IMG/VR virus record: IMGVR_UViG_2531839234_000021 | Length of the DNA: 4,566 nucleotides | Reading direction: 5' to 3' (one strand) | Source: a virus | Taxonomy: Duplodnaviria; Heunggongvirae; Uroviricota; Caudoviricetes | Part shown: piece by piece, positions 1,219 through 3,931 of the stretch | Position numbering within the stretch: the stretch's first letter is position 1 | How the letters are laid out: every line of letters begins with the position of its first letter | Position numbers and translations under genes: made by a program | The notes under the pieces: generated by a model | What the model saw: the letters and a program-made list of their open reading frames with translations, nothing else | Told to the model about the DNA's origin: nothing | Database searches by the model: none

Positions 1219-1626
1219 TTATTTATTTGCGCTTCTTTTGCGAGCTTTGAGTAGTTCTTCAAAAAGTTTGTTGAAATTCTCAACTCGAGCACGCATCTCT
1301 GACAACAGAGCCTTTTGCTCTGACTCAGGCAGTGCGTCGAACAGTTGAAGCAACTCTTTTTGATCTTCTGTCAGATTGACTGGCTGATTATCTGGGATCG
1401 GTTCGCCTGGTTGCTTATCTTCATCTCCAAAAAGAAGCCAAGTCGGCGAGCACTGAAGCGCCTGGCTCAGTGCGAATAATCTCTTCCCCGCTGGCTGTGT
1501 TTCATCTCTTTCCCATTGAGAAATTGTTACGTGAGCCACTTTGACCAGCTTACCTAATGCGGCCTGAGACAGTTTTAATTTTTTTCGCCTGTATAAGAGG
1601 CGAGCACCGAAGGTTTCGTTTTTCAT
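1219..1626 (-). CDS. dicA: Prophage repressor, XRE-family HTH with a C-terminal helical domain and no S24 peptidase domain (DicA-like, 135 aa)
   Basis: Complete ORF. N-terminal HTH signature (LSQAALGKLVKVAHVTISQWERDETQP). Divergent from a Cro-like gene across an operator-rich intergenic region. Length and architecture match E. coli DicA as I recall it. On the same strand as dicF. Confidence 0.85.
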   Translation of the reverse strand: MKNETFGARLLYRRKKLKLSQAALGKLVKVAHVTISQWERDETQPAGKRLFALSQALQCSPTWLLFGDEDKQPGEPIPDNQPVNLTEDQKELLQLFDALPESEQKALLSEMRARVENFNKLFEELLKARKRSANK

Positions 1627-1702: not shown

Positions 1703-1930
1703 ATGTTGAAAATTGATGCTATAGCGTTTTTTGGCAGCAAAACAAAGCTTGCCAATGTCGCAGGAGTTAGGCTGGCAAGCGTTGCTGCATGGGGGGAACT
1801 GGTTCCTGAAGGTCGCGCGATGCGCCTGCAAGAGGCATCCGGCGGGGAACTTCAGTACGACCCCAAAGTTTATGACGAATATCGTAAGGCAAAGCGGGCG
1901 GGGCGGTTGAACAATGAAAATCACCACTGA
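1703..1930 (+). CDS. cro: Cro-like repressor of the P22 Cro family (DicC-like), 75 aa
   Basis: Complete ORF with RBS AAGGG 7 nt upstream. Sequence (FFGSKTKLANVAGVRLASVAAWGELVPEGRAMRLQEASGGELQYD) resembles P22 Cro as recalled (HFGTQRAVAKALGISDAAVSQWKEVIPEKDAYRLEIVTAGALKYQ). Divergent from the repressor gene. Confidence 0.85.
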   Translation: MLKIDAIAFFGSKTKLANVAGVRLASVAAWGELVPEGRAMRLQEASGGELQYDPKVYDEYRKAKRAGRLNNENHH

Positions 1931-2465
1931 ACAGGTTTGTGAGGCTCTGGATACCTGGGTATGCCGACCAGGAATGACACAGGAGCAGGCGACGATATTA
2001 ATCACGGAAGCATTCTGGGCTCTGAAAGAACGCCCGAACATCGATGTTCAACGCGTCACGTTTAATGATGGCGAGGTTGATCAACGGGCGCTGGGCGTTA
2101 ACCGGGTGAAGATATTCGAACGCTGGAAAGCTATCGACACCAGAGATAAGCGTGACAAATTCACGGCGCTGATTCCGGCAATTATGGAGGCTATCCGGAT
2201 CAGCGATTTCAGGTTGTATTGTGAAATTACTGACGGAAAAAGCATTACGTACATGATCGCCGGGTTAAACAAAGAATATGGCGATGTGGTGGAGTCCGGG
2301 CTGCTTTTTGCGGATCCAGTTGTTGTGGAACGTGAGACTGACGAGCTTATAGAAAAAGCTATTGCTTTCAAGCACGCGTATCGTCAGCAATACCAATATT
2401 ACTTTGCAGATAAACAAATGTCTGCCAGGGGGGCGTATGAGTATCGATGCACTACGATGGGCTAA
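1914..2465 (+). CDS. cII-position regulator, YdaT-like protein, 183 aa
   Basis: Complete ORF overlapping the cro stop by 17 nt and overlapped by the next gene's start. Position between cro and the replication initiator. The family assignment to YdaT/DUF1019 is from memory and tentative. Confidence 0.75.
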   Translation: MKITTEQVCEALDTWVCRPGMTQEQATILITEAFWALKERPNIDVQRVTFNDGEVDQRALGVNRVKIFERWKAIDTRDKRDKFTALIPAIMEAIRISDFRLYCEITDGKSITYMIAGLNKEYGDVVESGLLFADPVVVERETDELIEKAIAFKHAYRQQYQYYFADKQMSARGAYEYRCTTMG

Positions 2466-3477
2466 AAAGGTGAAAACCGGCAGTTCATCCAGTAAGTCAG
2501 TATTGACCTGGCTTGCTGATATGTGCGGTGCCGATTTGTGTGCATACCCGTCTGTATCTGCACTGGCAGAAGTAACGGAACTGAACAAAAAGACTGTGCA
2601 GGACAGCTTACGACACCTGATGGAGATTGGGTTAATTGTTGATACCGGTGAGAGAAAAGGCAGAACAAAGCAAATTGTGGTGTACCGACTTATCGGTGTA
2701 GAAGAAAGTGTTGCCGAGCCTGAATACACCCAAAAACGGGAGTCTTTAAAGGTGGGTAAAATTGGTGCTGTTAATAAAAACAGTACCGAAAATGGTTATG
2801 TTTCAGCACAAAACAGACCCAAAAACAGAACTCTTAGCTGCATGGAAAATAACCAAAGACACCCAAATTTTCCATCAAAGACACCCAAAAACGGATCACG
2901 GAACCCAAAGGAACCCAAAGATCTAAACCCCACACATAACGCACGCGAGAGTGCTCCGACCAGTGAGCAGGAAGTTTTGTCGTTACAGGCAGCCCCCCCT
3001 GTATTCCTGTATGGCCTGAGCGAACCCATCGGAAAATTCCCGATGAGCGATAGCTGGTATCCGTCACGGGATTTTCGACGACGGGCTGCGTTGTGGGGGA
3101 TGGCTTTGCCGGAGACAGAATTTACACCTGCTGAACTTGCCGCCTTCCGGGACTACTGGGCAGCGGAGGGGAAAGTGTTTACGCAGATTCAGTGGGAGCA
3201 GAAATTCGCCCGTCACGTAAATCACGTCAGGGCGCAGGTTAAACCAGTCAGCAAAGGGGTAAACCATGCAGCAGCACCAGGTGGCACCGCATCACGGGCA
3301 GTTCAGGAAATTCGGGCAGCACGTGAGCAGTGGGAACGTGAAAACGGATTTATCAGCGACGGAAACGGCCTGGAAGCTGTGGGAACTCATGGGGGAGGTT
3401 TATTCGAACCGCTGGACCCAGAAGAACGGGGCCGCACCTTCGAAGCTCTGGATTGCACAGATTGGCGCGATGACTGA
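2437..3477 (+). CDS. Replication initiator, lambda O-like: N-terminal HTH DNA-binding domain, low-complexity linker encoded by iterons, C-terminal domain
   Basis: The long ORF begins at 2362, but the likely start is ATG 2437 preceded by a G-rich Shine-Dalgarno (GGGGGG 2428-2433). The N-terminus (MSIDALRWAKK...SVSALAEVTELNKKTVQDSLRHLMEIGLIV) looks like a phage replication-initiator HTH. Iteron-like repeats lie in the middle of the gene. It is immediately followed by a P-like gene. Confidence 0.8.
   Translation: MSIDALRWAKKVKTGSSSSKSVLTWLADMCGADLCAYPSVSALAEVTELNKKTVQDSLRHLMEIGLIVDTGERKGRTKQIVVYRLIGVEESVAEPEYTQKRESLKVGKIGAVNKNSTENGYVSAQNRPKNRTLSCMENNQRHPNFPSKTPKNGSRNPKEPKDLNPTHNARESAPTSEQEVLSLQAAPPVFLYGLSEPIGKFPMSDSWYPSRDFRRRAALWGMALPETEFTPAELAAFRDYWAAEGKVFTQIQWEQKFARHVNHVRAQVKPVSKGVNHAAAPGGTASRAVQEIRAAREQWERENGFISDGNGLEAVGTHGGGLFEPLDPEERGRTFEALDCTDWRDD
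2804..2935. repeat. Iteron-like direct repeats (core ACCCAAA); candidate prophage origin of replication inside the initiator gene
   Basis: AGACCCAAAAA 2815-2825; AGACACCCAAA 2857-2867 and 2879-2889 (22-bp period); GAACCCAAAG 2901-2910 and 2911-2920 (tandem, 10-bp period); degenerate copies AACCAAAG 2851-2858 and AAACCCCACAC 2925-2935. An AT-rich stretch lies just upstream (~2745-2815). Confidence 0.5.
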
Positions 3478-3931
3478 GCAGCAAATCCGGCAGGTCTGCC
3501 GCCAGTGCATGGACCGCTGCCGGGCGGGTGAAACATGGCCTCCGGACCTGGCTGAGTTTGTGGCGTTGATTTCGGAGAGCGGGGCAAATCCATTTGGCCT
3601 GACGGTGGATGCTGTGATGGAGGAGTACCGTCGCTGGAGGAATGAATCCTGGCGGTACGACGGGAGTGATAAATACCCGTGGCCTCAGCCTGTGCTGTAC
3701 CACATTTGCCTCGAGATGCGTTCAAAGGGGATTGAGCGCCAGATGACCGAAGGGGAGTTAAAACGGCTTGCAGAAAGGCAGCTGACGAAATGGGCAAAGC
3801 ATGTTGGTAATGGCCTCAGTGTTCCGCCAGTCCGGCGACAACTGGCAGCACCCAAACGCCCGCCAGGGCCAACGCCAATTGAATTGCTGAAACAGGAATA
3901 TGAGCGCCGGAAGGCGGCCGGTTTTGTCTGA
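3266..3931 (+). CDS. Replication protein P-like (DnaB helicase loader), 221 aa if it starts at 3266
   Basis: Complete ORF. RBS AAAGGGG 6 nt before ATG 3266. The C-terminal two-thirds align by eye with lambda P as recalled (EFVALI ~ QFVAWC; [44 protein letters not shown] ~ YPWKSNAHYWLVTNLYQNMRANALTDAELRRKAADELVHMTARI). The start is uncertain; an alternative is ATG 3470. Confidence 0.8.

Follow-up and report, generated by a model that had tools for sequence, protein, structure and literature searches.

The DNA analysed here is a stretch of 4,566 bp (the window) from a Caudoviricetes genome, IMG/VR record IMGVR_UViG_2531839234_000021, and corresponds to the early-right part of a lambdoid prophage. 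With the 'PPompW' prophages of enterohaemorrhagic Escherichia coli (EHEC; LC567822 and relatives) it shares 99.9% identity, and the chromosomes of O157:H7 and O55:H7 strains are 100% identical to part of it. The element under study is an array of direct repeats (iterons) with a short tandem repeat behind it, located at 2724-2924 in the middle of a 346-aa open reading frame (ORF) that encodes the replication initiator. Our results suggested that 2724-2924 is probably the replication origin of the prophage, lying in the DNA that encodes the predicted disordered linker of its own initiator. The parts of the gene are as follows.

2437-3477, plus strand: initiator gene, 346 aa, named 'phage replication protein' in LC567822.
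2437-2706, plus strand: coding region of the N-terminal DNA-binding domain (N-domain, aa 1-90), the presumed iteron reader (alignment A3, 33 homologues).
2724-2903, plus strand: six iteron positions, itemized below.
2896-2924, plus strand: contracted 12-mer tandem (TCACG GAACCCAAAG GAACCCAAAG ATCT), a candidate DNA-unwinding element (Tandem Repeats Finder, TRF; alignment to relatives).
3037-3237, plus strand: coding region of the DnaT-type C-domain (aa 201-267).

The word ACCCAAA occurs 7 times in the window, while 0.88 copies are expected (maximum 4 in shuffled sequences, with 0/200 shuffles reaching 7). Six of the seven copies, at 2728, 2817, 2861, 2883, 2903 and 2913, lie on the plus strand within 2728-2919, which agrees with a preliminary description of this DNA that counted at least six such direct repeats in the middle of the gene. 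There they encode the linker peptide ...YTQKRE...QNRPKNRT...KTPKNGSRNPKEPKDLNP. Counted from the ATG at 2437, the six copies begin at codon positions 0, 2, 1, 2, 1 and 2, and the use of all three reading frames indicated that the repeat belongs to the DNA, not to the peptide. Two copies 22 bp apart had also been described, and these turned out to share a word of 14 nt (CAAAGACACCCAAA, at 2854 and 2876). The perfect 10-bp tandem pair reported earlier is likewise real (2900-2920; period 10, 2.1 copies, 100% match by TRF), and a 10-bp period makes a peptide repeat impossible; however, this pair does not consist of iterons but is the homologue of a 12-mer tandem found throughout the family.

Comparison with relatives changed the definition of the repeat. 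Instead of ACCCAAA with a 10/22-bp periodicity, as proposed before, the conserved iteron core is CCCAAAAACGG, with ACCCAAA as its left half, and the whole unit measures about 18-25 bp. A position weight matrix (PWM) built from relatives only detected 4 sites in the window, all on the plus strand and all in 2724-2903, with none elsewhere (shuffles, 0.135). Alignment with nine enterobacterial loci (alignment A4) gave six homologous iteron positions in this interval (two perfect, two near-perfect, one variant and one decayed), spaced 22-44 bp apart in the window, the first of them 18 nt past the N-domain coding end at 2706. The array therefore begins at 2724 and not at 2745 as formerly given, and its best copy, ACACCCAAAAACGGGAGT at 2726-2743, lay mostly outside the interval first noted.

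Iteron 1, 2724-2748 (core 2729-2739), plus strand: ATACACCCAAAAACGGGAGTCTTTA; perfect core, PWM score 31.5, read as T-Q-K-R-E.
Iteron 2, about 2748-2768, plus strand: AAAGGTGGGTAAAATTGGTGC; decayed to GGTGGGTAAAATTGG, below the PWM threshold; counterpart in relatives AAAGACACCCAAAAACGGTGC.
Iteron 3, 2780-2804, plus strand: ACAGTACCGAAAATGGTTATGTTTC (TACCGAAAATGG); weak, PWM score 10.2; counterpart in relatives TACCGAAAACGG.
Iteron 4, 2813-2837, plus strand: ACAGACCCAAAAACAGAACTCTTAG; one mismatch (CAG for CGG), PWM score 23.9.
Iteron 5, 2857-2875, plus strand: AGACACCCAAATTTTCCAT; the CCCAAATTTTCC (T-tract) variant; counterpart in relatives ACACCCAATTTTGG or GTACCGTTTTTCCC.
Iteron 6, 2879-2903 (core 2884-2894), plus strand: AGACACCCAAAAACGGATCACGGAA; perfect core, PWM score 29.6.

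The two outer iterons were the best preserved. Iteron 1 shares 26 identical nt with Edwardsiella phage EPP-1 despite 58% protein identity, and the core of iteron 6 is invariant in 9/9 enterobacterial loci (pairwise identity 1.0). The preliminary description had placed an AT-rich stretch upstream of the array. Such a stretch exists (GC 0.37 in 2750-2849, where the 30-mer 2769-2799 is the 6th least stable of the window), but it is part of the array itself, located between iterons 1 and 4, and its modestly AT-rich part at 2750-2815 corresponds to the decayed iterons 2 and 3. At iteron 4 the commonest E. coli allele, P0030 (a cluster of 1917 sequences), encodes PKNG, which implies an intact CGG, where the window encodes PKNR (CAG). 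The E. coli/Shigella alleles P0034 and P0036 lack precisely the 66 bp, or 22 codons, that separate iteron 4 from iteron 6 (window 2818-2894), as expected of recombination between direct repeats.

Relatives were collected by scanning one genome per species with an N-domain alignment, which gave 46 loci; 40 were analysed together with the window and EPP-1, making 42. A scan of viral contigs with a single N-domain query returned 80 essentially identical E. coli prophage loci without diversity, and a protein search with the 97-aa N-domain returned 29 proteins, mostly truncated or frameshifted. Searching whole loci for the commonest 10-mer (up to 2 mismatches) found mostly composition-driven words and was replaced by a local scan of exact-8-mer density. 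Among the 42 loci, collected by the N-domain alone, 38 have the densest local direct-repeat cluster of the ~4.2-kb locus starting -60 to +150 nt from the end of the N-domain. N-domain identity was 70-80% in Enterobacterales, ~50% in Acinetobacter and ~35% in Desulfovibrionaceae, Roseibium and methylotrophs. Homologues with 70-80% identical N-domains carry the same repeats in the same order, and more distant N-domains carry different repeats in the same place. The repeats are thus conserved along with a similar N-domain; the refuting outcome named in the preliminary description, repeats not kept in such homologues, did not occur, and the earlier suggestion that they define the replicon specificity of the prophage is likely to be right. 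The lineage-specific iterons are listed here.

Enteric bacteria: CC(C/G)AAAACGG (core as above).
Acinetobacter: AGTCCCAACAAYGG.
Locus L118: AGTACCAAAAWYGGTACT.
Desulfovibrionaceae: CCCCCGAACNNGGTTC.
Roseibium: GGGTGTCACCCTGACAC.
Methylococcaceae: GAAAAVCATACCGGTAGG, in seven or more copies.

In these relatives, too, the repeat behaves as DNA. Single genes translate one motif in two or three frames (PKNG, TQKR, HPN), and the iteron spacings include values that are not multiples of 3 (17, 22 and 26 bp, besides 24 bp). Among the nine enterobacterial loci the identity of the 11-nt iteron cores is 72-100%, with conservation at all three codon positions, compared with 46% identity at third codon positions of the N-domain and 60% in the spacers between iterons. 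Iteron similarity was correlated with N-domain identity (Spearman 0.42; Mantel test, 0 of 2000; control region, 0.016). A stronger argument than this statistic comes from domain exchange. The EPP-1 initiator is 58% identical over residues 1-163 and has a different C-domain (Phg_2220_C), and its linker DNA holds a more regular, co-linear array of AAAGACACCCAAAAACGG. Rac-SA53 YdaU (DUF1376 N-domain) and phage pPE4 have the same DnaT C-domain with other N-domains and are without these iterons; pPE4 has repeats of its own ahead of the domain junction. N-domain and iterons thus appear to be inherited as one module while C-domains are swapped freely, and we propose that replicon specificity resides in the pair of N-domain and iterons.

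The iterons of relatives are often dyad-symmetric (ACACCCAAAAACGGGTGT, GATCCCAAAAACGGGATC, AGTACCAAAAACGGTACT). Short inverted repeats reached 18.0 per kb in the iteron regions vs 5.4 per kb elsewhere in the same genes, and their number was 138 as against 28 +/- 6 in shuffled sequences. Such symmetry suggests binding by a dimer. The iterons of the window retain the A-tract but have no perfect 5-bp dyad arms.

Behind the last iteron there is a second, distinct DNA-level element. In most HTH_36-type initiator genes examined, from Enterobacterales to Alphaproteobacteria, the last iteron is followed by a 12-mer block with the family consensus (G)ACAC(G/A) then GAAYCTAYCAAW GAAYCTAYCAAT (consensus also written GAATCTACCAAT), and most loci have 2-3 tandem units (for example CAGAATCTATCAATAGAATCTACCAATGAATCTACCAAT, GAACCTATCAATGAACCTATCAATGAACC and GAACCTACCATTGAACCTCTCATTGAACC). 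GAAYCY is 29-fold denser after the last iteron than elsewhere in the loci (23.3 vs 0.81 per kb). For the first 12-mer unit, 22 loci use frame 2 (RNLPKNLP...) and 12 use frame 0 (ESTNESTN, EPINEPIN), and the block is constant across N-domain lineages and C-domain types. In most loci no DNA within +/-300 bp is less stable than the first 40 bp of the block (mean z +1.3 to +1.6, with 67-83% of 36 loci at z > 1), and because it is a local minimum of duplex stability the block is probably the unwinding element. Taken together, 42 genome loci and 74 viral contigs defined a family of HTH_36-initiator origins, whose profile is an MS(I/L)DAxxWA...DTGER N-domain, then lineage-specific iterons, then an ACAC(G/A)-GAAYCTAYCAAT tandem. 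The window fits this profile.

In the window the block is contracted: CGGAACCCAAAGGAACCCAAAGATCT aligns with CGGAATCTACCAAGGAACCATAAAGATCT of the closest relatives, and its units are 10-mers richer in G+C. The duplex stability of 2896-2924 is -39.4 to -40.4 kcal/mol, with a window mean of -42.6 (standard deviation, sd, 3.5). The contraction is common to all E. coli alleles examined, which suggests a lineage feature and not a recent lesion. GATC (Dam) sites at 2894-2897 and 2920-2923 flank the 10-mer pair, and most enterobacterial relatives have kept AAAGATCT here; over the whole window GATC shows no excess.

The link between block and N-domain was confirmed by a reverse search with the 12-mer block as the only query, in which its 23-nt pattern GAAYCTAYCAAWGAAYCTAYCAA was run against 2.9 million viral contigs. 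Of 76 loci recovered, 62 have the pattern at aa 90-184 of an ORF whose N-terminus matches the N-domain hidden Markov model, 2 are cut by contig ends but have iterons, and 2 are unrelated. In the remaining 10 the same iterons and 12-mers lie outside coding sequence, and no gene of this kind is nearer than 3.5 kb (L139, L159, L162, L163, L164, L166, L168, L172, L192 and L207; for example L207 3800-4050 and L159 7040-7280). These stand-alone loci consist of AT-rich DNA with palindromic iterons such as GATCCCGTTTTTGGGAT, then GAACCTATCAATGAACCTATCAATGAATC, and similar iterons are present at locus L104, which is of the Acinetobacter lwoffii type. The neighbours in L162 include an AlpA-like gene and a gene with AAA and helix-turn-helix domains. 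No match to the stand-alone loci was obtained by megablast against phage and plasmid collections. They may be satellite-like elements that borrow the initiator of a helper phage.

The initiator protein itself joins two domains through a long linker. Its C-domain matches Pfam DnaT (PF17948, aa 201-267, E 9e-17), and the DnaT structures 4ou6 and 6aeq are 51-59% identical to it over ~70 residues, with template modelling scores of 0.85-0.92. The structural match spans aa 194-271 of the query, equal to ~82-157 of the DnaT chain, whose N-terminal half is unmatched. HTH_36 is weak in the window copy (20.9 bits) and above the Pfam cut-off in relatives. In an AlphaFold2 model the predicted local confidence (pLDDT) is 28-38 at aa 88-194, 81-88 at aa 200-267, and moderate in the N-domain. 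The ~100-residue linker is therefore predicted to be disordered, and a disordered linker can tolerate a code at the DNA level. The N-domain is modelled with a helix-helix-helix-helix-strand-strand winged-helix topology. Its fold matches are weak, generic winged helices, among them the RepA_N initiators 4pql, 4pta and 5kbj (E ~0.02-0.06), and they do not point to a specific initiator family. The window protein has no Pfam match to RepA_N at E <= 0.01 and none to Rep_3. The gene had been called 'O-like' in the preliminary description. The name holds as an analogy only: the N-domain is HTH_36 and not Phage_rep_O (PF04492), which the window protein does not match, while lambda O and P22 gp18 match it at E 1e-36 to 1e-38, and comparison of the family profile with the lambda O N-domain gave an hhalign probability of 1.8%. 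In E. coli prophages, this DnaT-type C-domain (84-90% identical) is also fused to at least three other N-terminal architectures (P0056, P0066, P0072 etc.), namely DUF1376, T5orf172/MUG113 plus DUF1376, and 'phage replisome organizer', so that the junction before ...DLNPTH... looks like a hot spot of module exchange.

A mechanism can be proposed by analogy with lambda O and ori-lambda. Rightward early transcription would lead to synthesis of the initiator, whose N-terminal winged-helix domain would bind the iterons, probably as dimers, given the dyad symmetry around the A-tract in relatives. The nucleoprotein complex would then strain the adjacent tandem-repeat block until the block opens. The DnaT-type C-domain, a known fold for binding single-stranded DNA (ssDNA), could hold the opened strand and/or contact the lambda-P-like protein and, through it, host DnaB. 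A lambda-P-type gene is indeed present downstream of the initiator gene (PF06992, E 4e-16, in the ORF ending at 3931).

Within the window, the PWM sites, the non-random number of ACCCAAA copies and their three reading frames support a constraint at the DNA level. Repeats could also be a mere by-product of a low-complexity Pro/Lys/Asn/Gly linker (e.g. xPKNGxV), with no role at the DNA level. In favour of this, the linker is a predicted disordered region, and several of the copies in relatives share a frame at a distance of 33 bp, encoding (T/E)P(K/E)NGxV. However, two or three frames per gene are used for one and the same DNA core, spacings of 10, 17, 20, 22 and 26 bp do not make up whole codons, and the cores are conserved at all three codon positions; besides, iterons and 12-mers occur in the non-coding DNA of ten viral contigs, and the 12-mer pattern recovered the initiator family from DNA alone. 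The frame analysis largely refutes the by-product explanation, and we consider it very improbable. Iterons and 12-mer block form a conserved two-part DNA element that is linked to the N-domain. Another explanation is that the repeats are binding sites of the initiator with a mainly regulatory task, such as autoregulation, a transcriptional roadblock, titration of the initiator or copy control of the handcuffing type, and that the origin lies elsewhere. Plasmid iterons do have such dual roles, as in Rep_3 replicons, and no strong AT-rich unwinding element stands beside the array of the window. But the constant pairing of iterons with a low-stability tandem downstream matches the origin layout of lambda and P22, related loci have no other repeat cluster of comparable density, and the stand-alone non-coding copies keep both parts together. 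A mainly regulatory array is thus unlikely, and from the analogy with lambda and P22 we infer that 2724-2924 has origin activity.

Several points weigh against an origin at 2724-2924. Binding, unwinding and origin activity are all inferred, and the analogy of mechanism is not backed by protein homology, as no homology of the N-domain to lambda O could be detected. Physical linkage and common descent confound the covariation statistic, which, given the co-inheritance of adjacent DNA, is no proof by itself. The unwinding role of the 12-mer block is derived from its position, stability and conservation, and in the window 2896-2924 is only ~0.6-0.9 sd less stable than the mean and is not AT-rich. 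Moreover, the array of the window is degraded in comparison with relatives, having two perfect cores, a decayed iteron 2 and no perfect 5-bp dyad, and iteron 4 carries A where the commonest E. coli allele has G. With 12-mers that are contracted, G+C-richer and mildly unstable, the origin of the window could be weak or inactive. It might even be a decaying relic that no longer fires, in a prophage that is cryptic or passively replicated, and whether the partly decayed array still fires is the main uncertainty specific to the window. Of the six iterons one is decayed, one is weak and one differs from the majority allele by a point change; the 12-mers have shrunk to 10-mers, and the nearly identical PPompW prophages have a frameshifted exonuclease gene. 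On the other side, the outer iterons 1 and 6 are perfect, the 10-mer contraction is a feature of the lineage, seen in all E. coli alleles examined, and lambda works with four iterons. The module of N-domain and linker is also present with an intact ORF, at >=95% identity, in 908/5426 complete E. coli genomes. A relic is accordingly doubtful, and we give it a low probability. Among the carriers of the module are O157:H7 and further EHEC lineages, in which Stx2a phages are its neighbours.

The initiator gene is annotated in public records only as a 'DnaT-like ssDNA-binding domain-containing protein'. The other genes around it are arranged as in the following list.

1219-1626, minus strand: dicA-like repressor gene.
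1703-1930, plus strand: P22_Cro/dicC-like gene.
1914-2465, plus strand: YdaT-like gene.
3470-3931, plus strand: lambda-P-like gene, a presumed helicase loader (Pfam Phage_lambda_P); likely ATG at 3470, annotated start at 3509.
3966 onward, plus strand: DUF1627 gene.

In the lambda-P-like protein the Pfam match begins upstream of the annotated start, and the in-frame ATG at 3470 overlaps the stop codon of the initiator gene (ATGACTGA), which suggests translational coupling and a mis-annotated start. CCTAAG/CTTAGG motifs recur on both sides of the dicA-like repressor gene, in 1084-1175 and 1640-1700, and the same two regions hold several of the least stable 30-mers of the window; the first also includes a 23-bp tandem repeat at 1118-1161 (AAGCTTCTTGTGTAGAAAAACCT). 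The two regions are likely the left and right operator and promoter regions (OL/OR) of the immunity module. A zinc-ribbon-like ORF on the plus strand at 676-876 (MNTIKFSCPECGG, stop, VFDTSF...ICKNCGH...) is broken by an in-frame TAA at 715-717 and may be a small gene inactivated by a nonsense codon; the public record has a hypothetical coding sequence on the opposite strand, at 655-1011. An Rfam scan of the window found no RNA family, no promoter-like or terminator-like sites were found in 2300-3600, and the window has no DnaA box (TTWTNCACA).

The searchable literature gave no description of this origin, which, with its incomplete coverage, is absence of evidence only. The 'Eru' literature, which classifies the replication units of Stx phages, names HTH_36 proteins but no iterons or origin. 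Searches with motif strings returned only unrelated work, e.g. on papillomavirus E2 sites (ACCGAAAACGGT), and the literature on Rac oriJ/YdaU and on DnaT with iterons had nothing on this origin. The locus thus shows the architecture of ori-lambda, presumably with the same logic, in a different and apparently undescribed initiator family. The principle of an origin within the initiator gene has been known since lambda, so current understanding is not overturned; the new addition is a family-wide 12-mer tandem that neither protein domain explains, and its invariance raises the question of its reader. Locating the origin and its specificity determinant provides handles on prophage induction and replication-dependent toxin amplification, on the replicon incompatibility of co-resident prophages, and on the construction of minimal replicons. 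It also provides a rule for annotation, in which iterons directly after an HTH_36 domain, followed by a GAAYCTAYCAAT tandem, mark the origin; this would reach many phages of Acinetobacter, Klebsiella, Enterobacter, Edwardsiella and environmental Proteobacteria.

A wider reading is tentative, and we hold it to be possible rather than probable. The window may belong to a large, apparently undescribed replicon family of Gamma-, Beta- and Alphaproteobacteria and Desulfovibrionaceae that uses two origin codes. One would be the fast-evolving iterons read by the winged helix. The other would be the nearly universal GAAYCTAYCAAT 12-mer, which co-varies with neither protein domain and is possibly a sequence-specific element for unwinding or helicase loading, read by an invariant partner such as a conserved replisome protein of the host or the MS(I/L)DAxxWA N-terminus. 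The origin alone, with no initiator gene, would be found in some satellite-like elements, which may use the initiator of a helper phage.

The closest known systems are phages lambda and P22. The annotated iterons of lambda (ATCCCTCAAAACGAGGGA, ATCCCCTAAAACGAGGGA, ATCCCTCAAATTGGGGGA and ATCCCTCAAAACAGGGGG) lie in O after the N-domain, in DNA that encodes the linker IPQNEGKSPKTRD..., and are followed by an A/T-rich stretch; the annotated origin in P22 gene 18 has TCGGTAAAAC-type repeats, then two tandem copies of ACAAAAGACAATA. As in both, the origin proposed here lies inside the initiator gene, in linker-coding DNA directly after the N-terminal DNA-binding domain, which supports the lambda-like arrangement of candidate origin repeats put forward in the preliminary description. 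Two differences from lambda claimed there did not hold. The repeat unit follows the same design, with at least four direct iterons, a dyad around a CAAAAC(G) centre (clear in relatives, while the copies of the window keep only the A-tract) and one CAAATTG-type variant beside units like ATCCCTCAAAACGAGGGA; lambda iteron 3 (CCCTCAAATTGGGGG) shows the same kind of variation as iteron 5 of the window. Nor does the placement of the AT-rich element differ, as the family has its low-stability stretch of short tandem repeats downstream (3') of the iterons, like lambda and P22. In all of them the iterons are type-specific and the right-hand part is common across types, and, as in lambda, a lambda-P-type gene follows the initiator gene. 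The differences lie in the protein, with an HTH_36 N-domain where lambda and P22 have Phage_rep_O, and a DnaT-type ssDNA-binding C-domain, and in the right-hand element, which is a GAAYCTAYCAAT tandem here and a 40-bp A/T-rich run in lambda; in the window it is contracted to 10-mers and not AT-rich. The right-hand palindrome of lambda, GAATTCTGGCGAATCCTCTGA, was considered as a homologue of the 12-mer but has only GAAT(T/C)C in common with it. The AT-rich part of the P22 origin (L208 2416-2458), that is, the tandem 13-mer, agrees with the 12-mer block at 9/13 positions in the register ACCAAAGAATCTA, perhaps by chance or perhaps as a common motif of unwinding elements. The C-domain of EPP-1 and Edwardsiella starts with CCCCCCTAGCCCCCAAGGGGG (L004 2985-3015), closely like CCCCCTTACCCCCTAAAGGGGG after the origin of P22 gene 18 (L208 2463-2487), so that the two initiator families appear to have swapped C-domains at a point directly behind the origin.

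E. coli DnaT has a homologous C-terminal domain (PF17948), but its N-terminal, PriB-interacting half is replaced here by a winged helix and linker, in a phage initiator and not a restart factor. The Rep_3 plasmids (pPS10, F, R6K, RK2) likewise have direct repeats bound by winged helices beside a short-tandem unwinding element, where contact between the initiator and ssDNA has been proposed (PMC4081077, PMC10602881). They differ in having iterons outside the rep gene, together with DnaA boxes, and a Rep fold of WH1-WH2, whereas the iterons of the window lie inside the gene, with no DnaA box and no Rep_3 match. In RepA_N plasmids of the pSK41 and pAD1 type, from Gram-positive bacteria, repA holds the origin repeats in its variable middle section, between a winged-helix N-domain and a host-specific C-domain. 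The N-domain resembles theirs weakly in fold (4pql/4pta/5kbj), at a generic level and with no Pfam RepA_N match, and host range and context differ, a phage here and plasmids there. An origin inside the initiator gene is found in SPP1 gene 38, in RepA_N plasmids and in repC of repABC plasmids as well.

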